A stretch of DNA of 64,000 bases from a virus: IMG/VR virus record IMGVR_UViG_3300017757_000001; one strand, written 5' to 3'. A program made the translations under genes and the position numbers. The notes beneath the pieces are model-generated. The model was not told the DNA's origin, did no database searches, and saw only the letters and a program-made list of their open reading frames with translations. Shown here one piece after another: positions 5,533 to 63,419 of the stretch (positions are counted from its first letter, which is position 1; every line of letters starts with the position of its first letter).

Positions 5533-5553
5533 AATATAATTTTATTATAAATA

Positions 5554-31805: not shown

Positions 31806-33011
31806 TTATCTTAAAATAGTAAGATGTCCTGATTTTTGGTAAATTTCTGGGGAGTTAAATTTTCTAGCATAAAAACTGTAAACATAAACTCCATCTACTA
31901 CATAGGAGGGACCTCCTTGCATACTACCATCCCAATAAGGATATGAGCCATAATCATCACCATAACCCTCAAAAACTAAACCACCCCATCTATTATAGAT
32001 CTTAAACTCTACATCAACCCAGCAATTTAAATCAAGGATAATTTGCCAAATATCATTAAACCCATCATTATTTGGTGTTAATACATTAGGTATAAAAATA
32101 CTCCAAGGCCAACATTCATCTATTATTAATTCATTACAAGGTAAATTAGTATCACAATCTACTTCAATAATTTGAGTAATAGTATCTGTTAAAAAAACAT
32201 ATTCTAAAACTTCAATCTCTAAAGTATCTGCGATATATTCAACGACAGTGTCTATTTCATATATATTGACATACTCTATGAGTGTATCGGTTATATACAC
32301 GTATTCTTGCATTATAATGGTATCTATTTGCGTTTGAATAATAGTATCTGGTGGAAGTTCTATATATAAAGTATCTGTAATATATTCTACAATTGTATCA
32401 GGTTCACATTCATTATAACAAACTGCTATTCTATTATCATCTATATTAATATCAGGGTATGTCTGTGTCTGATTAAAACTATTACCAACAGTCCATCCGT
32501 TATCTGGAAAATCATCATAACCTGCAGTTTGAGAAAGATTAATCTGCCATATTACTACTTCCCAACAATACCCTTCAATAGGAGTAGCTAAAATACACTC
32601 CCAACTAAATGGTGGATTTATTTCAATAGTTGCAGTTGTACCAGTTTCCCAACCACCCCAATTTGTAGAAACTGCAAAACTCCAACCAGGATGGAAGGTT
32701 GCTGAAGTACAATCTGTATTTTCTCCTAAATCTTGTCCAGTTATTTCATCTACATAATGAATGCCAAAAACAAGGCTGGTTATATTTTCATTATTATTTA
32801 CAGAACTAGATCCATTATCATCACAACTATTACCATCCCACTGTGTGTACTCATTACAGCCGCAGCTTTCAGCATTAATAAATTCAACTACAAATGAGTG
32901 AGTATCATCTGTTGTAGCAGGTGGTGTTTGACTTACAAGTTCTAAGTTACACGTTTGGGAATATGTAGTGTAAGACATAGTGGTTATTAAAACCAAAAAT
33001 AATTTTTTCAT
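31806..33011 (-). CDS. Secreted protein with T9SS type B (gliding motility/CHU_C) C-terminal domain
   Basis: Signal peptide ending YSQ; IFIPNVLTPNNDGFNDIW...IYNRWGGLVF...WDG...GVYVY...GHLTILR. Confidence 0.85.
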   Translation of the reverse strand: MKKLFLVLITTMSYTTYSQTCNLELVSQTPPATTDDTHSFVVEFINAESCGCNEYTQWDGNSCDDNGSSSVNNNENITSLVFGIHYVDEITGQDLGENTDCTSATFHPGWSFAVSTNWGGWETGTTATIEINPPFSWECILATPIEGYCWEVVIWQINLSQTAGYDDFPDNGWTVGNSFNQTQTYPDINIDDNRIAVCYNECEPDTIVEYITDTLYIELPPDTIIQTQIDTIIMQEYVYITDTLIEYVNIYEIDTVVEYIADTLEIEVLEYVFLTDTITQIIEVDCDTNLPCNELIIDECWPWSIFIPNVLTPNNDGFNDIWQIILDLNCWVDVEFKIYNRWGGLVFEGYGDDYGSYPYWDGSMQGGPSYVVDGVYVYSFYARKFNSPEIYQKSGHLTILR

Positions 33012-35210: not shown

Positions 35211-35386
35211 TAACGCCTATTTTTAAAGTGAAGTTCTTGTCTTAAATATTCTAATTCACGCTTTGCTTCGCCTACTTGACCACTATCAAGATATTCTTGA
35301 ATTACGGTTATTTTATTATAAATTTCATCAACTTTAACGTAATTTTCACTTATAATTTCTTTTAATCTTTGTTTAAATTTACTCAT
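35210..35386 (-). CDS. Small hypothetical protein (58 aa, not in ORF track)
   Basis: MSKFKQRLKEIISE..., overlaps the bS21 stop. Confidence 0.5.
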   Translation of the reverse strand: MSKFKQRLKEIISENYVKVDEIYNKITVIQEYLDSGQVGEAKRELEYLRQELHFKNRR

Positions 35387-35567
35387 CGTTTTTTAATTTT
35401 TGAATGTATTTAGCTTTATCAATAACATTTCTTCTTTTTGAAGAAGGCTTTTCGTAAAATTTATTAGATCTAAGTTCTTTCAACAATCCAATTTTTTTTA
35501 TCTTTTTTTTATAGCGTTTTAAAGCCCTATCAATTTTTTCATTTTTTCCAAGTTTTATTATAATCAT
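35379..35567 (-). CDS. rpsU: Ribosomal protein bS21
   Basis: MIIIKLGKNEKIDRALKRYKKK...FYEKPSSKRR...KAKYIQ; start re-called at 35567. Confidence 0.9.
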   Translation of the reverse strand: MIIIKLGKNEKIDRALKRYKKKIKKIGLLKELRSNKFYEKPSSKRRNVIDKAKYIQKLKNDE

Positions 35568-35631
35568 AAGCGTCTCTCTAAAAGGTTTTCTCTTCCACAT
35601 ATTAGTATACAGAAATACATATATACTACCA

Positions 35632-45054: not shown

Positions 45055-45110
45055 AACTGTTTTTGTTTATAATATACAACCTATATTTTACTTATCCTAA
45101 TTATATTATT

Positions 45111-45340
45111 ACCTCCAACCACCGAGGTTTTGACGACATGACCTCTTTTTACCGTTTGCTAGAGTGCCTTATTAGGCAGCCATCGCTAATTCAACTTGTT
45201 CGCCAGTTGTTACGTTGACCTTCCTTTTACCCTTATCACCCTGTCAAATCCGATCACCCCCATGCTTTAAATATTTTTTAGTGGAGGTGGAGGGAATCGA
45301 ACCCTCGTCCAAAAGTGTAGCTAATAAAAGTACTAGCGGT
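45111..45340 (-). ncRNA. ssrA: Circularly permuted (two-piece) tmRNA, tag (A)GEQVELAMAA
   Basis: Acceptor piece GGACGAGGGTTCGATTCCCTCCACCTCCA (to 45282) lies upstream of coding piece GGGGGTGATCGGATTTGAC (from 45261); G3:U70 pair; tag ORF 45172-45204; outer ends approximate. Confidence 0.9.
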
Positions 45341-45352
45341 CATTTATAATTA

Positions 45353-45760
45353 TTAATATTTTTCTGCTTCTAATACCTCTTCATCAGATGGCTCATAATC
45401 ATCCATATCACCAAATTCATTTCTATAGAACTCATCTTCTTCAGCTTGTTTAGCAGCTATTTCTTCATCTTTAGCTAAATCATCTTTCCAAGCAATTGGA
45501 GCTAGTAATCCACCATTTTCAATTACAGACCATATTCTTTCTTTCCATAAATTCATATGAACACCTTCTACAGTACATTCAAAACCTAATTTTTCAGTAA
45601 GTTTAGCTACTTTATCTAAAAATGCTGCTGTTAGCATATCAAATTCACCTTTTATAGGGAAGTTTTTACCATACTCATCTGTTCCATTTGTATTATTTTC
45701 ATACATTTCTTTAATATCTAACCAATCTGAGGTTAATATTGATTTTTTTGCTTTCGCCAT
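45353..45760 (-). CDS. Hypothetical protein with acidic tail
   Basis: AAAGTT-ATG leader. Confidence 0.55.
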   Translation of the reverse strand: MAKAKKSILTSDWLDIKEMYENNTNGTDEYGKNFPIKGEFDMLTAAFLDKVAKLTEKLGFECTVEGVHMNLWKERIWSVIENGGLLAPIAWKDDLAKDEEIAAKQAEEDEFYRNEFGDMDDYEPSDEEVLEAEKY

Positions 45761-47478: not shown

Positions 47479-47529
47479 GTAAATATACGAACTAGAATTC
47501 GCTTCTCCAAATATCTTCGCGAGAGTCTT
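47479..47529 (-). promoter_or_regulatory. Repeated promoter element, copy 6
   Basis: AAGACTCTCGCGAAGATATTTGG-N17-CGTATATTTAC. Confidence 0.8.
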
Positions 47530-47996
47530 TAAAAGCCCCCATGATCTGCATCACTAAATTTAATTAATTTATTAAAACAATTCATATTCAACATTTTATT
47601 TCGTTTCTTATCACCCATTTGATCCATTAATTTAATACGCATATGATTGCGTACTATATCATGAATAACATACACATCACCACCTAGATCGTTAATTAAG
47701 TCTTCATTATCCAATACAATTTGAGCTGATACTTTTTCATGGCCATAATGTGTAATATGTCCCTTTATAGGATGAGTTCCAGCAGTAACATCTTTACCAA
47801 TATCATGAAATATAGCTGCTAGTAATAAATCAATATCATCAAATTTCTCTAACCTACTAAATACTACACTAGTATGAGTTAAAACATCACCCTCAGGATG
47901 AAAATCTCTCCTTTGGTCAAAATTACTAAGGTTTAAAATTCTTAATCTTAAATCCTTAGGAAACTTACTAATTATTTTTAAAAATCTTTTATTCAT
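47529..47996 (-). CDS. HD-domain protein of the CCA-enzyme-associated type
   Basis: HPEGDVLTHT, HDIGK, GHEKVSA, HMR, DAD; TAATG coupling to upstream NTase. Confidence 0.85.
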   Translation of the reverse strand: MNKRFLKIISKFPKDLRLRILNLSNFDQRRDFHPEGDVLTHTSVVFSRLEKFDDIDLLLAAIFHDIGKDVTAGTHPIKGHITHYGHEKVSAQIVLDNEDLINDLGGDVYVIHDIVRNHMRIKLMDQMGDKKRNKMLNMNCFNKLIKFSDADHGGF

Positions 47997-48715
47997 TAGT
48001 GTTTTGTTGTGGGCATTAACCACATTCCATCTTTAAATATTACTTCCATCAAACCAGGAACTGTATCTATTGTTCTTAATGATCTTATAGTATCATGTTT
48101 CATCATTTTACTAACTTCTTCTCTTATTCTTTCTTGTGAAACTACTTCTTCTAATTTATCTAATAAATCAAGTTGCTTCATTGCATCACTTAATTCTTTA
48201 CATATTTTAAAATCTTTAGTAACACTAAATCTTAAGGCTCTTAGTAATCTTAAAGGATCATCCATTAAAGTAACCATTGGATCTAATGGAGTTCTTAATA
48301 TTTTATCTTCTAAATCTTTTAATCCCCCAAATAGATCAACTAATTGACCATCTTCAGTTTTACATAAAGCATTTACAGTAAAATCTCTTCTTACCATATC
48401 ATCTTCAAATGAACCTAACTCTAATATTGGCTTTCTAGTTCCAGGGATAACACCTATTTCCTTTCTAGCCATTACAAAATCAGCAACTAAACCTTCATGT
48501 TGGTGTCCTTTAGGAAACATAGCTCTAACAGTAAAACAATCTTTAGTTTTAAGAAATATTTTAAAACCTTCTTGTTTAAGAAAATCTAACATCTTCTCCC
48601 AACCTTCATCTACTGATAAAGTAAAATCATCTAGTTCAACAGTAAAATCTATATCTTTTGTGTGGAGTCCTAACAACTCATCCCTAACACACCCACCTAC
48701 TTCAAATAGTTTCAT
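47996..48715 (-). CDS. tRNA nucleotidyltransferase (class II CCA-adding/poly(A) polymerase family), head and neck only
   Basis: VGGCVRDELLG..KDIDF, RRDFTVNAL, DDPLRLLRALRF, SQERIREE. Confidence 0.9.
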   Translation of the reverse strand: MKLFEVGGCVRDELLGLHTKDIDFTVELDDFTLSVDEGWEKMLDFLKQEGFKIFLKTKDCFTVRAMFPKGHQHEGLVADFVMARKEIGVIPGTRKPILELGSFEDDMVRRDFTVNALCKTEDGQLVDLFGGLKDLEDKILRTPLDPMVTLMDDPLRLLRALRFSVTKDFKICKELSDAMKQLDLLDKLEEVVSQERIREEVSKMMKHDTIRSLRTIDTVPGLMEVIFKDGMWLMPTTKH

Positions 48716-57328: not shown

Positions 57329-58207
57329 TTAAATGCTCTCATATTCAATTGAAGTATTTCCTAAACCCCAATCTTTTGTATTTTGTGTATCTGTAAAATT
57401 TTCTACCCATTTATAAACATCATTATATGCTTTAGAATCACCCTTAAAATCGCCTTTATTATCTAAATCAGCTACTCTAGTTCCATCATCTTTAGTGTAA
57501 TAAGCCCCATGTTCCATATGATAAAGTGGAGGATTATATAATACTTTTAAATCGCACCCGTTTAATACCGATTTTTTCTGAATATTAGTATCTACATAAC
57601 ATTGGTATATCATATTTTCTTCAAATCCTTTTATTTTATTCCAAACATCTTTATGTGCTATTTGAAAGTCTCCACAGCAGTTAATTAAACTATAATTATC
57701 ATTTGCTGTAACTTTAGCAGGGAAGTGTCTTTCAGGAATATTTGATAGTGATTGTCTTAGTTCTTTGATATTATGACCATGTTTATACACTAAATCTTTT
57801 GGTGCTTCTCTTCTAGATATAGTATAAAATGTATTTTTATCTAAAGTTTTAATTAGATTTAATAATTCTTCTCTAGTGGGGGGAATTATATCAATATTAG
57901 TAGAAACAACCCAATCACATTCACTTCTTTTAATTCCTATATTTCTACTTAATCCTTCATTACATTGTTGAGCTGTTGGCTCAGGGATTAATATTTTTGT
58001 AACTTCAGGTGGTATTATATAATGTTTTATTTTTCCTGTCTTAGATAATTTATCTTCTATTTCCCATAAAAAAGATCCTTCAGGAGAATTCCAATCAATA
58101 TAATTTACTTCATCAAAAGTTTCTAATGATGATTTAAAATGAATTATACCTCTTTCAAAGTCTTTATATCCATCATTTCTATTTACTACTACTACTCCTA
58201 CTTTCAT
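57329..58207 (-). CDS. Glycosyltransferase (GT-A fold)
   Basis: RNDGY, IDWNS, SRNIGI, TNIDII (DxD-like), GDFQ, YHMEH. Confidence 0.7.
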   Translation of the reverse strand: MKVGVVVVNRNDGYKDFERGIIHFKSSLETFDEVNYIDWNSPEGSFLWEIEDKLSKTGKIKHYIIPPEVTKILIPEPTAQQCNEGLSRNIGIKRSECDWVVSTNIDIIPPTREELLNLIKTLDKNTFYTISRREAPKDLVYKHGHNIKELRQSLSNIPERHFPAKVTANDNYSLINCCGDFQIAHKDVWNKIKGFEENMIYQCYVDTNIQKKSVLNGCDLKVLYNPPLYHMEHGAYYTKDDGTRVADLDNKGDFKGDSKAYNDVYKWVENFTDTQNTKDWGLGNTSIEYESI

Positions 58208-59066
58208 AATATTTAATTGTATTTTTTAAACCATTTTCTAAAGTGGTAAATTTATAATCTTTTAGATGAGTATTAATTAGTTTTTTATTAGGAGCCCCTA
58301 CAAAAGCATTTGTGTCCCATTCAATTTTATTATAATCATATCCTATAATATCACAAATGGTTTGAGCATAGTGGTTTAAAGTATATTCATTTCCTGAAGA
58401 TAAATTAAATATATCAGGTGCATCTGGGTTATTTATACAAGACATAATAATGTTTATAGCATCATCTATATAAATTAATTCTCGAGTTTGAGTTCCATCA
58501 CCCCATAAAACGACTCTTTCACCTCCATTTTTAGCTGTATGGATTTTTCTGATTAGGTCAAATATAAAATGTTTATCATCTAAATTATAATTAGGACCAT
58601 AAAGTACTGATGGAATCAAGTAATTAGAGGACATTAAATATTCTTTTTTTAATGCTTTTAAACCTACTAATAAATTACGTTTAGCATTACCATATACTTC
58701 ATAACCTTCTTCTACTTCACCTTTTAAATAATTTTCTTCAGTTTTAATTACATCTTTATTATAACCACAAGATGAACCAAAAGTAACCATATGAGCTCTT
58801 TGTTGGTATTGAGCCCAATAAGCCAACATATCAGCATTAATGCTAGAATTTACTATCCATTGTTCTCCTGGGTGTTCTTGACAATAACCTCCTGCTGCTG
58901 TTTTAACAGCCAAATGAATTACTACATCAATGGAATTTCTTTCTAATTCCCACATAGATGTAAAATTACTTGATGTGATTTCTATAACATCATGATTTTC
59001 ACTTTTTAATTTTTTTACTAATGGTTTTCCCACAAATCCACTAGCACCTGTGACTAATATTCTCAT
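58179..59066 (-). CDS. NAD-dependent epimerase/reductase (GDP-fucose synthase-like)
   Basis: GASGFVG, GSSCGY, YGNAK, WGDGTQTRELIY. Confidence 0.85.
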   Translation of the reverse strand: MRILVTGASGFVGKPLVKKLKSENHDVIEITSSNFTSMWELERNSIDVVIHLAVKTAAGGYCQEHPGEQWIVNSSINADMLAYWAQYQQRAHMVTFGSSCGYNKDVIKTEENYLKGEVEEGYEVYGNAKRNLLVGLKALKKEYLMSSNYLIPSVLYGPNYNLDDKHFIFDLIRKIHTAKNGGERVVLWGDGTQTRELIYIDDAINIIMSCINNPDAPDIFNLSSGNEYTLNHYAQTICDIIGYDYNKIEWDTNAFVGAPNKKLINTHLKDYKFTTLENGLKNTIKYYESRSSSSK

Positions 59067-59067
59067 A

Positions 59068-60012
59068 TTATAAATTTGTATATTTTTTATTATTATCTGT
59101 TATAATCATTTGAAAGGATTCTGATAGTTCATTAATACCTTTAGTAATAGTATAATCTGGAGACCAACCAGTTTTTTCTAATTTTTCATTAGATACAATA
59201 TAATCTCTATTATCAAAGTCAGATGAAAATTCATTTTCGATAATTACTAAATCTGGGAATTGTAGTTTTATAGCTTCTGCTAATTCTCTTTTATTAAGGT
59301 TAGCATCTGATAGACCAACATTATATACTTCCCCATTCATTGATTCATAATTTTCAATGCAATGTAAAAATGTTTTTGCTATATCGCGTACGTGTATGTA
59401 ATTTCTTTTAAATTGCGATTGAAACAATACTAAACACCCATCAGTCATAGTTTTATATACAAAATCATTAACTAATAAATCTGTACGCATTCTTGGTGAT
59501 GAACCAAATACTGTTGCTAATCTTAAACAAATACCATTCCCCCAATCCATAATATATTCTTCTGCTTGACATTTTGTTTTAGCATAGTGAGATAAAGGAT
59601 TAAATGGTGATTCTTCGGTAATTATATCTTTTGAACTACCATATTGACTATTTGTATTAGGCATTATTAACTTTTGCCAAGGTTTTAAATTATCTACAAT
59701 AGTTTGGATTTGCCCATAATTAATATTTGTTGCTAATTCTTTATTTGCATCACAAGCTGGTGCTCCCACAATTGCTGCTAAAGGAATTATTATATCATGA
59801 CGTTCAACTAAATGTTGTAAAAAATGATAATCAGTAATATCACCCTTAATAAAATTAAAATTATCATAATGACATAAATGTAGTAATGATGTTTGTTTGT
59901 ACATTAAATTGTCAACAACAGTTACTTGATAACATTTATTAACTAATACTTCTGCTAGGACAGAACCTAAATAACCAGCTCCCCCTGTAATTAAAACTCT
60001 TTTTTTATTCAT
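59068..60012 (-). CDS. NAD-dependent epimerase/dehydratase
   Basis: GGAGYLG, YAKTK, RLATVFG, RNYIHVRD. Confidence 0.9.
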   Translation of the reverse strand: MNKKRVLITGGAGYLGSVLAEVLVNKCYQVTVVDNLMYKQTSLLHLCHYDNFNFIKGDITDYHFLQHLVERHDIIIPLAAIVGAPACDANKELATNINYGQIQTIVDNLKPWQKLIMPNTNSQYGSSKDIITEESPFNPLSHYAKTKCQAEEYIMDWGNGICLRLATVFGSSPRMRTDLLVNDFVYKTMTDGCLVLFQSQFKRNYIHVRDIAKTFLHCIENYESMNGEVYNVGLSDANLNKRELAEAIKLQFPDLVIIENEFSSDFDNRDYIVSNEKLEKTGWSPDYTITKGINELSESFQMIITDNNKKYTNL

Positions 60013-60521
60013 AGTAAATCTGCATTTTTATCCCTTGAAGATAATATAGGATTATTAATAGGCCAAGGTATGTTAATTTTTGGATCATTCCATTTTACTG
60101 TAAATTGTTCTTTTACACCACCATATAAAGTAGATTGTTTATAACTAAAAACACCATAATCACTCATTACTAGGTGACCATTAGCAAATCCTGGAGGTAC
60201 TAAAATTTGATTTCTGTTTTTATCATTTATTGTAAATAGTTCCCATTCAAGATAAGTTTGACTTTCAGGTCTCATATCAACAACTGCTTGTAATAATGCA
60301 CCGTAAACACACTGTACTAATTTCCAAGTTTTAAAATCACCATGTAAACCTCTTAATGTGTGTTTTGATGATGTACTAATGTCATCTTGTTTAAATTGAT
60401 CACAATTAAAAACTTTATAATTTTCTATATTCCAAGTTTCAACATACTCCCCCCTATAGTCATAAAATATATCTGGTTGGATTATTGGTAGTCCTAATTT
60501 TTTACTATGTTCGTATTTCAT
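60009..60521 (-). CDS. rmlC: dTDP-4-dehydrorhamnose 3,5-epimerase family
   Basis: DYRG, TLRGLH, VDMRPES, VPPGFANG, WNDP; start re-called at MKYEH. Confidence 0.85.
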   Translation of the reverse strand: MKYEHSKKLGLPIIQPDIFYDYRGEYVETWNIENYKVFNCDQFKQDDISTSSKHTLRGLHGDFKTWKLVQCVYGALLQAVVDMRPESQTYLEWELFTINDKNRNQILVPPGFANGHLVMSDYGVFSYKQSTLYGGVKEQFTVKWNDPKINIPWPINNPILSSRDKNADLL

Positions 60522-61279
60522 AATTCTTTTATATTTATTTTTGCAGTTCCTTTTTTCTGTACTATTTGTGTTGAGCATTTATTTGCAAATTTTATTGCAC
60601 TTTCTATAGAATCGGTTTCTAAATAAGAATGTACTAATCCAGCTAAAAATGTGTCACCTGCTCCACTTGTATCTCTAACATCAACTTCCTCAACAGGATA
60701 TTTAATTCCCTGATATTGTGCTCCTTTACTTCCTAATGTTGTAATTATCTTTTTAGCAAATTCATCTTCATTATCATGTAAAAAACCAATACTTTGATCT
60801 AATTCTATTTCGTTAATTTTGATAAATTTAATATTATGAGCCCACCCATCAATTTCCTTTTTAGTATCTAAAAATGTTATAGGATGATGTTGAGCTATAT
60901 AGTCAATTTGGTGCCATTCTAAAAATCCTTTATCATAATCACTCATTACAATAGCATCATAATTATCCCAATCAATATTTTCTAATGTTTTTTGTTCAAT
61001 TGGGAAAATATCATTTTCACCTTCATCAATTCTAACAAACATATGATTTGTTCTATTATCAACATATCTTGTTTTTTTAATTTGGTTTGCATTTGATATT
61101 AGATCAACCTCTATATCTAATGCTCTTAAATTATCTGCAACATTACCTGCCATACCTTCAGTCGAAACATATGATTCAGGTTTTAAAATGGGTACTGGTG
61201 CATCTGGGCAAAATCTATTTGTTGTGCAGTAAATGTACTCATCTATACAACTATCTCCTATTACTAATACTTTCATCAT
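60518..61279 (-). CDS. PfkB-family sugar kinase (RfaE/HldE domain I-like)
   Basis: PDAPVP, GMAGNVA, SDYDKG, DTSGAGDTF. Confidence 0.85.
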   Translation of the reverse strand: MMKVLVIGDSCIDEYIYCTTNRFCPDAPVPILKPESYVSTEGMAGNVADNLRALDIEVDLISNANQIKKTRYVDNRTNHMFVRIDEGENDIFPIEQKTLENIDWDNYDAIVMSDYDKGFLEWHQIDYIAQHHPITFLDTKKEIDGWAHNIKFIKINEIELDQSIGFLHDNEDEFAKKIITTLGSKGAQYQGIKYPVEEVDVRDTSGAGDTFLAGLVHSYLETDSIESAIKFANKCSTQIVQKKGTAKINIKEL

Positions 61280-62172
61280 AGTTTATTTACTTTAATTATA
61301 TCATCCAACAATTCTTCTAATCTATCAAAATAAAATCCATTTTCTTGAACTGCTTTATAATTATTTTCTATTGCTTCTATTCTACTATAATAATCATTTT
61401 CATCTAAATTATTTAAAATTTCCAATAATTGGTCTTCATCTTGAAATCTAATAATACCTTTTTCATCATAACCCCATTCAGATATATTTTCAGCACCATA
61501 ATATATAGGTAAAGTTTTGGTAGCAAAACAATCTAAAATCTTATCTGCAAAATAATTATTTTCTTTTTTACTTTCAATAGCTACATGAAACATAGTATTT
61601 CTATCCCATACTTCTTTTTTACCTTCACCTTCAATAGGATTACCATACTTTGTAATTTTTTCTTCAAAATAACCTGGTCTTTGTCCTCTAGGATCAAAAT
61701 CTTTTAGTGTTTTATACCATTTATGAGGTATAGTAATTTTATCATCTAATGCTAATACTCTTTGTCTTAATTTATGACCTTCAAGTATCTCTAATACACC
61801 ACTTAAAAATGTTACTTCAAAATTTCTATTATTAATATCTTTATTTTCCCAACTTTCAATATATGGTCTATCTAAATTTGTTTCTCCATGAACAAATAAT
61901 AAACCATTTTCACAATGTTGTTGAATTAATTCCCATTGGGATAATATAAGACTAAAATGTTGTTTAATTGATATTGTATAATTACATAAATTAAAGATTT
62001 CATTAGGTTCATTTAGAATAATAATATTAACTGGATTAATGCTTAATTCTTCTTGAGTAGCAGGCCAATCACAAAATAATGTAATAGGTTTATCTTTATA
62101 TTTTTCACAGTTTACATCTATGAAAAATTCCATTCTTTCTTTTGCTATTGAGTTTTTAGTAAATATTTTCAT
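61276..62172 (-). CDS. Glycosyltransferase, GT10 (fucosyltransferase)-like
   Basis: FHVAIES...NYFADKILDCFATKTLPIYYGA. Confidence 0.75.
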   Translation of the reverse strand: MKIFTKNSIAKERMEFFIDVNCEKYKDKPITLFCDWPATQEELSINPVNIIILNEPNEIFNLCNYTISIKQHFSLILSQWELIQQHCENGLLFVHGETNLDRPYIESWENKDINNRNFEVTFLSGVLEILEGHKLRQRVLALDDKITIPHKWYKTLKDFDPRGQRPGYFEEKITKYGNPIEGEGKKEVWDRNTMFHVAIESKKENNYFADKILDCFATKTLPIYYGAENISEWGYDEKGIIRFQDEDQLLEILNNLDENDYYSRIEAIENNYKAVQENGFYFDRLEELLDDIIKVNKL

Positions 62173-63419
62173 TTAGGTACTTTTGTTATTTCACACACTG
62201 GGAAAGGAGTTATAAATGATACACCTTTATTATTAATAATGTCTTTATTCTTTTTTAATATTTCTTTTTCAAAATTATGGGATAATAATAAATAACTATC
62301 TGGTAATTCATTTTCATCTTCTTTAAATACTGGTATATGAGAACCTGGTGCGTAAGTTCCTATTTTATATGGGTTTACTTCTACAATCTTTTCAATCCAT
62401 GAACTATCAATTCCCATATAATTTAATAATGTATTACCTTTAACAGGAGCTCCATATCCCCACACTTTTTTACCTAGTATAAATTTAGAAAATAATAATC
62501 TTCTTAATTCAAATTTAATCTTACCAATACTTGCAGCAAACTGTCTAAATGAATTTAAATTATATTTCTTATCTCTTTTCTTTAATACTTTTGTTCTTTC
62601 TGTAATTTTACATTTATTTTTTCTGAATTTACATATTATACTACCACTATGAATTTCATCAAAATAAGTATCTTCTAAATGAAGATTATACTTTTTTAAT
62701 AATGTAGTTAAACTTTTTAAGGTATAATAACATAAATGTTCATGGTATATAGTATCAAAATTTAAATTATCAACCATAGCCCCCACATACATGCATTGTG
62801 CCACAAATACTCCATCATCTTTTAAACAATAATTAATTCCATTAATTACACTGTCTAATTCTTCTAAATGAAAAAATACACCAGATGCATTTATTAATTT
62901 AATACTATTGGGTTCTAGTTCATCTTTTACACTTGCTTCATTAAAAAATTCATTTATAGTATCAATATTTTTCTCTTCAGATAATTTACAGATATTAGTT
63001 GCTGATTCAAAATTAATAAGTTTTTTAAACCCTAATTTTTTATATTGTTCTAATTGTGACCCATCATTACCCCCAATATCTAATATAATATCATTTTCTT
63101 TATCTAAATTATAATCATTACTATTTTCTACTGCTAATTTATAAAAATGATCAATTAATGTTCTAGTTGTTCCTGATATATAAGAATGATCTAAAAACAT
63201 TGTTTCTTTTGGTACAAAATAACTTAATTGAAGTAATCCTGGTTTGTTACAATAAACTAATTGTAAAGGGTATGTAGGTTCTTTTCCACATTCGTTCTTT
63301 TTTAAAAAACCATTAGCCCAAGGTTGTTTACCTAAATCCAAAATAACTTCATAATCTGTTGTTAATTTGTTTTCACCTAATGAAAATATTTCTTTATTTT
63401 TTACCATGATATTTCCCAA
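62169..63419 (-). CDS. NDP-hexose C-methyltransferase
   Basis: LDLGKQPWAN, DIGGNDG, FDTIYHEH, YGAPVKGNTLLNY, PGSHIP. Confidence 0.85.
   Translation of the reverse strand: MGNIMVKNKEIFSLGENKLTTDYEVILDLGKQPWANGFLKKNECGKEPTYPLQLVYCNKPGLLQLSYFVPKETMFLDHSYISGTTRTLIDHFYKLAVENSNDYNLDKENDIILDIGGNDGSQLEQYKKLGFKKLINFESATNICKLSEEKNIDTINEFFNEASVKDELEPNSIKLINASGVFFHLEELDSVINGINYCLKDDGVFVAQCMYVGAMVDNLNFDTIYHEHLCYYTLKSLTTLLKKYNLHLEDTYFDEIHSGSIICKFRKNKCKITERTKVLKKRDKKYNLNSFRQFAASIGKIKFELRRLLFSKFILGKKVWGYGAPVKGNTLLNYMGIDSSWIEKIVEVNPYKIGTYAPGSHIPVFKEDENELPDSYLLLSHNFEKEILKKNKDIINNKGVSFITPFPVCEITKVPK

Follow-up and report, generated by a model that had tools for sequence, protein, structure and literature searches.

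A compact, circularly permuted tmRNA gene in a phage with probable hosts among marine Bacteroidota

In the IMG/VR virus record IMGVR_UViG_3300017757_000001, which was analysed over a stretch of 64,000 nt (the window), the minus strand contains a gene for a transfer-messenger RNA (tmRNA) that is circularly permuted: the 3' half of the tRNA-like domain comes first, followed by a short intervening segment and then by the 5' half. It is confirmed that this is a two-piece tmRNA gene in a phage, and its RNA would be processed into the two pieces, charged and used for tagging. Judged from the comparison of sequences, the gene is real, conserved and very probably functional in a lineage of marine Bacteroidota phages. 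It can also be stated with high confidence that it is a working phage gene and belongs to a family that is widespread among marine T4-like phages of Bacteroidota, with a function that is proposed further below.

Identity and conserved structure of the gene

ARAGORN calls a permuted tmRNA ('tmRNA*') at 45081-45372 on the minus strand with the tag GEQVELAMAA, and the Rfam model for permuted tmRNAs (RF04321, tmRNA_permuted) matches the gene with 71.8 bits at a gathering score of 47 (E = 8e-12). An earlier reading that used the letters of the DNA only (the sequence-only reading) had already proposed a permuted tmRNA gene in a phage, and both tools call it; also the T-arm, the CACCTCC-A end, the 20-nt spacer, the G3:U70 pair and the tag frame are all present on the minus strand where that reading had placed them (Table 1). 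The clade-specific models of Rfam all fail on the gene. The best of them, beta_tmRNA (RF01850), reaches 54 bits against a cut-off of 84, and alpha_tmRNA (RF01849) and cyano_tmRNA (RF01851) remain below the score of the beta model and were suppressed as weaker clan matches. Phage loci that served as controls do pass such models, L042 and L020 the beta model with 168.6 and 114.5 bits, respectively, and L011 the alpha model with 76.9 bits.

A structure of 50 base pairs was derived from 14 sequences, tested on these and then retested on 52 distinct sequences (in the MAFFT alignment, a gap has to be corrected for the helix P2a), and the two sets agree with respect to covariation. Across the 52 sequences, 95.4% of the cells are paired, and double-sided changes are found at 23 pairs and in 267 cells, as compared to 87±11 cells in shuffles, of which none in 500 reached 267, and to at most 43 cells in slid controls. 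The tRNA-like domain, which comprises the acceptor stem and the T-arm, is paired to 100% and shows compensatory changes. Its G3:U70 pair is G:U in 52 of 52 sequences, and pair 5:68 of the acceptor stem is A-U in 28 and G-C in 23 of them. The two halves of the molecule are joined by four helices, the acceptor stem, P2a, P2b and P2c, and there are 24 covarying inter-piece pairs in the family. Three helices between the pieces had been seen in the sequence-only reading, and two of them, AGGGTG/CACTTT and TAAAAG/CTTTTA, covary, whereas the third one, in which ACCGCTAG was to pair with CTAG..CGGT, has to be replaced: the complementarity to CTAG is a property of the window only and is not conserved, and the ACC covaries with a GGU at 45218-45220 just upstream of the tag.

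PK1, the pseudoknot that normally lies between helix 2 and the resume codon, is absent. The linker from P2c to the resume codon is short and variable in length, and as it measures only 13 nt in the window and is mostly taken up by a 5-bp hairpin at the resume codon, there is no room for PK1. This hairpin is paired to 99% in the 52 sequences, with a compensatory change from U-A to C-G in variants with long tags, and a like hairpin is visible also in the tmRNAs of Maribacter phage Panino and of the loci L003/L004. The prediction of a compact gene that lacks PK1 has therefore been borne out, and it was also right that most pseudoknots have been lost, but one H-type pseudoknot is kept after the tag, and it covaries: in its stem S2, compensatory changes occur at all five pairs, and stem S1 has C-G, U-G, U-A or A-U at one pair and double changes at two more. 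The pseudoknot is followed by a conserved purine-rich tail, GG(T/A)GG-N4-5-GAGG, which is found at 45111-45123(-) in the window and at the same place in relatives and which covaries with none of the elements that were tested; in some relatives, an intrinsic terminator is found at this place.

The tag frame has 10 sense codons and a stop in 52 of 52 family members, and also the positions that had been left free by the search pattern are restricted: codon 6 always specifies Leu, Met or Tyr, and codon 11 is a stop in all cases. In the tag-pattern search, GEQVELAMAA was found at 41 loci and GEQVEMAMAA at 25. There are three kinds of variants with longer tags, for example with 27 additional codons (ca. 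37 residues), and these remain in frame and keep the AMAA end. Such variants are L012, L013, L015, L019, L050, L051, L054 and L056, the tags of which are mis-read by ARAGORN. Codons 3-4 (CAA GTT) constitute the 3' strand of the resume-codon hairpin, and the tag sequence may thus be partly fixed by the structure of the RNA.

Of 59 distinct junctions, 54 have a spacer of 16-22 nt and the other five have one of 68-90 nt (68-70 nt in four of these), and the spacer is poorly conserved. In L050 (4512-4957(-)) and L082, a complete tRNA-Ala(UGC) gene lies inside the spacer, which means that one precursor would yield this tRNA together with both tmRNA pieces, and the variable length as well as the nested tRNA-Ala fit a removal of the spacer by tRNA-processing enzymes. 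In the family, the discriminator is followed by CTA in 35, by CAA in 14 and by CCA in 7 cases, and as CCA is thus usually absent from the genes, it is likely to be added later in most cases.

In relatives, the motif TATTTATA is found 3-5 nt before the first paired base, and the window has a similar box close to this position, which together with the first covarying pair was used to infer the 5' end of the acceptor piece. Among the 11 minus-strand copies of TATTTATA in the window, 7 are intergenic and lie 12-27 nt before the ORF (open reading frame) starts of structural genes, which makes the motif a candidate late-type promoter of this phage lineage. Copies of the motif (also in the form TATGTATA) are located at the minus-strand positions 5553, 10880, 25170, 28456, 57328 and others, with a strong enrichment in intergenic DNA, and on the opposite strand TATTTATA reads TATAAATA, the T4 late box.

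Table 1. Features of the tmRNA gene and of a neighbouring gene in the window (positions in the 64,000-nt stretch)
Feature	Position	Strand	Description
Promoter-like box	45345..45352	-	TAATTATA, one mismatch to the motif TATTTATA; 4 nt before the first paired base
Acceptor piece	45282..45340	-	ca. 59 nt before CCA addition; 5' ACC (P2c), 3'-side strands of P2b and P2a, GGAC, T-arm, CACCTCC, A45282
P2c	45338-45340 with 45218-45220	-	3 bp, ACC with GGT; middle pair C-G in 27 and U-A in 25 sequences
P2b	45323-45330 with 45224-45231	-	8 bp, CTTTTATT with GGGTAAAAG; covaries
P2a	45312-45317 with 45237-45242	-	6 bp, CACTTT with AGGGTG; covaries
T-arm	45290..45306	-	5 bp, GAGGG-TTCGATT-CCCTC, loop TTCGATT; compensatory changes at two pairs, up to 4 pair types
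3' acceptor strand	45283-45289	-	CACCTCC; discriminator A at 45282
Acceptor stem	45255..45289	-	7 bp, 45283-45289 with 45255-45261; G3:U70 = 45259:45285
Intervening segment	45262..45281	-	20 nt; starts with CTA at the CCA position; putatively excised
Coding piece	45124..45261	-	at least 138 nt, from G1 (45261), 5' strand GGGGGTG; 3' end perhaps at ca. 45111 via the purine-rich tail
Resume-codon hairpin	45192..45209	-	45205-45209 with 45192-45196; GGC in the loop, at the usual place of PK1
Tag reading frame	45169..45204	-	GGC..GCC, 10 codons, GEQVELAMAA, then TAA TAA
Stop-codon hairpin (equivalent of helix 5)	45162..45181	-	stops in the loop; 99% paired; one pair changes from C-G to U-A in 14 sequences
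H-type pseudoknot after the tag	45124..45155	-	S1 45151-45155 with 45133-45137; S2 45141-45145 with 45124-45128
Split gene resembling a CCA-adding enzyme	47529..48715	-	overlapping ORFs: head 47996-48715, HD domain 47529-48023; PF01743, PF01966 and CCA tRNA nucleotidyltransferase models

Distribution, host and relation to known tmRNAs

A search of IMG/VR with a pattern for the junction yielded 58 permuted tmRNA loci, of which about 25 belong to the window's family if the long-tag variants are included, and a search with a pattern for the tag yielded 85 loci. The family is thereby present on at least 85 IMG/VR contigs, and 80 out of 80 ARAGORN calls on them are permuted and none is one-piece. 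Phage proteins that the window has in common with family contigs are 30-69% identical. In 50,697 deposited phage records, the family was not found by blastn with the gene, the only match being 37 nt of the T-arm region in Cellulophaga phages, and megablast with 20 kb of the window gave no match either; the nearest isolate, Flavobacterium phage immuto, lacks a permuted tmRNA, as do Microcystis phage Mel-JY01 and LR756508. In 185,579 species-representative bacterial and archaeal genomes, the junction pattern has no match, and the tag pattern has a single match on a contig that is binned with a Nitrosopelagicus metagenome-assembled genome (MAG), so that there is no evidence of a cellular lineage or of a prophage. 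This 15-kb contig of an archaeal Candidatus Nitrosopelagicus MAG (CALBOT010000027.1, L148:4220-4511, tag GEQVEMAMAA) is most likely a mis-binned phage contig and possibly a source of records of an 'archaeal tmRNA'. The searches also brought up a second compact permuted group (L010, L022, L052, L057, L061 and L063), with the tags ADGEFALAA, ANDEFALAA and ANDNFALAA, the genes of which lie in large phage tRNA arrays. RF04321 is the only model passed by this group, which in trees forms the outgroup nearest to the window's family.

As to the phage itself, all genes of the window are on the minus strand, the G+C content is about 28%, baseplate genes are present, and the nearest isolate, immuto, has 47% amino-acid identity in the baseplate wedge protein. 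A host from the Bacteroidota is well supported, since sorting domains of the type IX secretion system (T9SS) are encoded by the window and by two relatives and since Shine-Dalgarno sequences are nearly absent. The ORF at 31806-33011(-) ends with a T9SS type B sorting domain (CHU_C with 54.2 bits, which is above the Pfam cut-off, and TIGR04131 with 36.3 against 35), and such a domain in a phage protein implies an export by the T9SS of the host. The two largest related IMG/VR records of the same tmRNA family encode a protein of more than 1000 residues with a T9SS type A end (Por_Secre_tail, 41.8 and 43.4 bits). In the records with beta-type tmRNAs there was one weak match to T9SS domains, and in those with compact tmRNAs and AND tags there was none. 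A Shine-Dalgarno-like core was found upstream of only 3 of 79 ORFs. All of this is in line with the Bacteroidota-type phage that had been assumed from the sequence alone. The coding-strand intergenic DNA of the window shows no enrichment of TAnnTTTG, the -7 motif of Bacteroidota sigma-A, and the motif is thus of no help for the host assignment.

The novelty that the earlier reading had seen in a permuted phage tmRNA is not supported to the extent claimed, since two-piece tmRNAs of phages have been published, with 53 of 133 unique phage tmRNAs being permuted, mostly from aquatic phages (Buchholz et al. 2022, PMC9004378), and since Panino, an isolated phage of Flavobacteriia, has a related compact permuted tmRNA. 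The tmRNA of the window is a structurally unusual variant, with a hairpin at the resume codon and no PK1, of a known kind of phage gene. The tmRNAs of the OM43 phage Melnitz, of pelagimyophages and of cyanophages (PMC9004378) are like the window's family permuted, borne by phages that are mostly marine and T4-like, detected by ARAGORN, and in no need of a phage SmpB. They match models of the alpha or cyano type and have Ala-resume tags, and Melnitz has a glutamine riboswitch and an early promoter, whereas the window's family fails the clade models, starts its tag with a Gly resume codon, lacks PK1, is preceded by a late-type promoter box and is carried by phages with a Bacteroidota host. In the literature searched, there was no description of a permuted tmRNA in a flavobacterial phage. 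The only Bacteroidota entry that is listed as 'Permuted' in Table S1 of PMC9004378, Cellulophaga phage phi4:1 (NC_021788, L072:11919-12580), was rejected as an ARAGORN artefact, as the 662-nt call extends over the genes of tRNA-Tyr, Ser and Asn, has a nonsense tag and reaches at best 15.6 bits with RF04321.

The beta-type tmRNAs of RF01850, which have phage members in L020, L023, L042 and L055, share the stacked P2 layout with the window's family, their tags end with ..AMAA or ..ALAA, and in some of the phage members the tag begins with Gly. In comparison to these, the window gene lacks the block of hairpin and PK1 between P2 and the tag and is roughly 40-100 nt shorter. The tmRNA gene of Maribacter phage Panino (PP540027, 27557-27889), which has been called only 'tmRNA' (Steiner et al. 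2024, PMC11590407), is permuted and compact, matches RF04321 with 62.2 bits and encodes the tag GKVMNVSFAPTVRQFA. As in the window's family, its Gly resume codon stands in an AACUGG context within a hairpin, and CTA is found in place of CCA. Unlike there, the spacer has about 37 nt, the phage is a podovirus, the gene lies in a tRNA array, and the match to the family profile is only 45 bits, and the Panino gene hence represents a different family. The Cellulophaga phages phi38:1, phi40:1 and Calle have tmRNA genes in which 35 of 37 nt of the T-arm and 3' end are identical to the window gene, in which UUUGACAGGGU follows the acceptor stem, and which likewise have CUA for CCA, but these genes have the standard order, a length of 362 nt and 87 bits with RF00023. 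Compared by tag and gene order, also the cellular tmRNAs of Bacteroidota resemble the window's family in that the tag starts with Gly-Glu and ends with A-x-A-A (GETNYALAA in Bacteroides), but their genes are one-piece in more than 99% of the assemblies. In the part of a 2025 tmRNA database that was consulted, 79 unique sequences from phages are reported, along with a small number of permuted instances from assemblies of Bacteroidota. For annotation it matters that the window's family is missed by the clade-specific Rfam models, that the published phi4:1 call is a false positive, and that a copy has entered a probably mis-binned archaeal MAG.

Proposed function and origin of the permutation

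If the RNA works in the way that its conserved elements suggest, a single precursor would be transcribed from the putative late-type phage promoter, RNase P would cut before G1 (45261), and the spacer would be trimmed back to A45282, to which CCA would then be added by the host enzyme or by a phage CCA-adding enzyme; the addition is proposed because the gene reads CTA at this position. The acceptor piece would be charged by the alanyl-tRNA synthetase (AlaRS) of the host, and host SmpB would bring the complex to ribosomes that are stalled on broken messages. Translation could then resume at the GGC and append (A)GEQVELAMAA, the ribosome would be freed at the TAA, and the tagged fragment would be left to host proteases. 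The likely advantage to the phage is that ribosomes would stay available in the late phase of infection, in which host RNA is broken down or defence nucleases cut RNA. A rescue role under conditions in which host tmRNA or mRNAs are cut, as had been suggested in the sequence-only reading, is plausible.

There are several points that weigh against a working two-piece tmRNA. PK1 is normally important for tmRNA function, and it is missing here. CCA is not encoded in the window gene, the promoter-like box deviates by one mismatch from the family motif, and the window sequence, when folded by itself, gives an unremarkable structure (z = -1.66) in which the P2 helices do not appear, for which reason the structural case rests on comparative evidence. 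Also no SmpB was found in 76 ORFs of the window and in five related records (23-80% complete), so that the RNA must fit the SmpB of the host. The absence of PK1 and of a phage SmpB in these records would be compatible also with an RNA that acts mainly as a decoy, sequestering SmpB, AlaRS or ribosomes of the host and thereby blocking host trans-translation with no ribosome rescue, and there is a precedent for this in phage DS6A, the tmRNA of which consists only of the tRNA-like domain, with a similar molecule inhibiting tmRNA in E. coli. A decoy, however, has no use for a tag frame, and yet this frame is conserved along with its resume codon, its stops and its hydrophobic A-M-A-A end, and the long-tag variants remain in frame, and a decoy function is regarded as highly improbable. 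Another alternative concerns the fate of the products: as the phage tag is unlike the host tag, with a conserved core QVE(L/M/Y) that differs from GETNYALAA and with variants of 37 residues, tagged products might be handled differently, by slower or faster degradation or by another adaptor, and the benefit would then go beyond the recycling of ribosomes. This is unlikely, although less so than the decoy, since codons 3-4 form a strand of the resume-codon hairpin, and the peptide may therefore not be what determines that sequence.

With regard to the origin of the permutation, the sequence-only reading had proposed an independent event in this phage lineage, starting from a one-piece tmRNA of the Bacteroidota type, which would be a further event beside those of the alpha, beta, cyano and mitochondrial tmRNAs. 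The Gly (GGC) resume codon and the GE...A(M/L)AA tag indeed resemble the native Bacteroides tag GETNYALAA, the host belongs to the Bacteroidota, in which 24,380 standard instances of cellular tmRNAs stand against 48 permuted ones, one-piece tmRNAs are carried by the Cellulophaga phages phi38:1 and Calle, and all three clade-specific Rfam models failed. On the other hand, the best clade model is still beta_tmRNA, with a full-length alignment, and with the family profile, phage tmRNAs of the beta type are still matched at 55-59 bits and well past the tRNA-like domain. The single one-piece tmRNA of a Bacteroidota phage that was compared has 50.6% identity to the window and 52.5% to the beta type and thus no special likeness to the former, and in two trees the nearest outgroups come from phages with permuted tmRNAs of compact form, the tags of which start at an Ala resume codon (ANDNFALAA, ANDEFALAA). 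Such outgroups imply that tags change on a shared permuted scaffold, and the GE tag need not mark a separate origin. We therefore lean against an independent permutation, which is possible but doubtful.

Somewhat favoured is an origin as a reduced offshoot of an older, phage-borne permuted lineage, either beta-like or a compact clade with Panino, L003/L004, L016 and L010/L022/L052, in which PK1 was lost and the tag was adapted to Bacteroidota hosts. The scores with the family profile form a gradient from L016 (77 bits) via L003/L004 (69 bits), L010 (63 bits), the beta type (55-59 bits) and Panino (45 bits) to classical alpha- and beta-like tmRNAs (37-47 bits), and the resume-codon hairpin is the same in Panino and L003/L004. 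All tmRNAs are homologous, though, and likeness alone shows no shared permutation event. The trees, which cover ca. 150 nt of the tRNA-like domain and the P2 region and were calculated once without and once with a phi38:1 tmRNA that had been permuted in silico, are unrooted, contain too few one-piece sequences, and shift in topology when one sequence is added. A wider form of the independent origin can be put forward only tentatively: the family may represent, either alone or jointly with the Panino type and further compact forms from phages, a separate permutation of a Bacteroidota-type tmRNA that arose in phages, with a hairpin in place of PK1, and may constitute a minimal tag-encoding tmRNA of roughly 60 + 140-150 nt that functions with the unmodified SmpB of the host. 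Whatever the origin, a working RNA of this kind would mean that PK1 is dispensable for a tag-encoding tmRNA and that one pseudoknot is enough, and with its two pieces adding up to about 200 nt, it would offer a natural minimal form for structural and mechanistic work on trans-translation.

Neighbouring genes

The family is common in ocean viral metagenomes and marks a T4-like phage lineage of marine Bacteroidota with tRNAs, a CCA-adding enzyme and the ribosomal protein bS21, a combination which suggests that these phages tend the translation machinery of their host late in infection. ARAGORN finds two tRNA genes in the window. The split gene that resembles a CCA-adding enzyme (Table 1) has its closest phage relatives, among others, in the Cellulophaga phages phi4:1 and phi17:2, with 45% identity. 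It was considered as a fixed partner of the tmRNA gene, but this was rejected, as the enzyme is absent from five related records; it is possible that the enzyme is a helper of the tmRNA that stands outside the gene itself.

The gene for bS21 is located at 35382-35600(-) and matches PF01165 with 52 bits and the equivalog model TIGR00030 above its cut-off; a tblastn search of the 50,697 phage records gave no match to this protein. Further on, at 57329-63419(-), there is a cluster of sugar-nucleotide genes with two NAD-dependent epimerases/dehydratases and one C-methyltransferase, and matches to a dTDP-4-dehydrorhamnose 3,5-epimerase and a cytidylyltransferase were found in the window with no position assigned to them.

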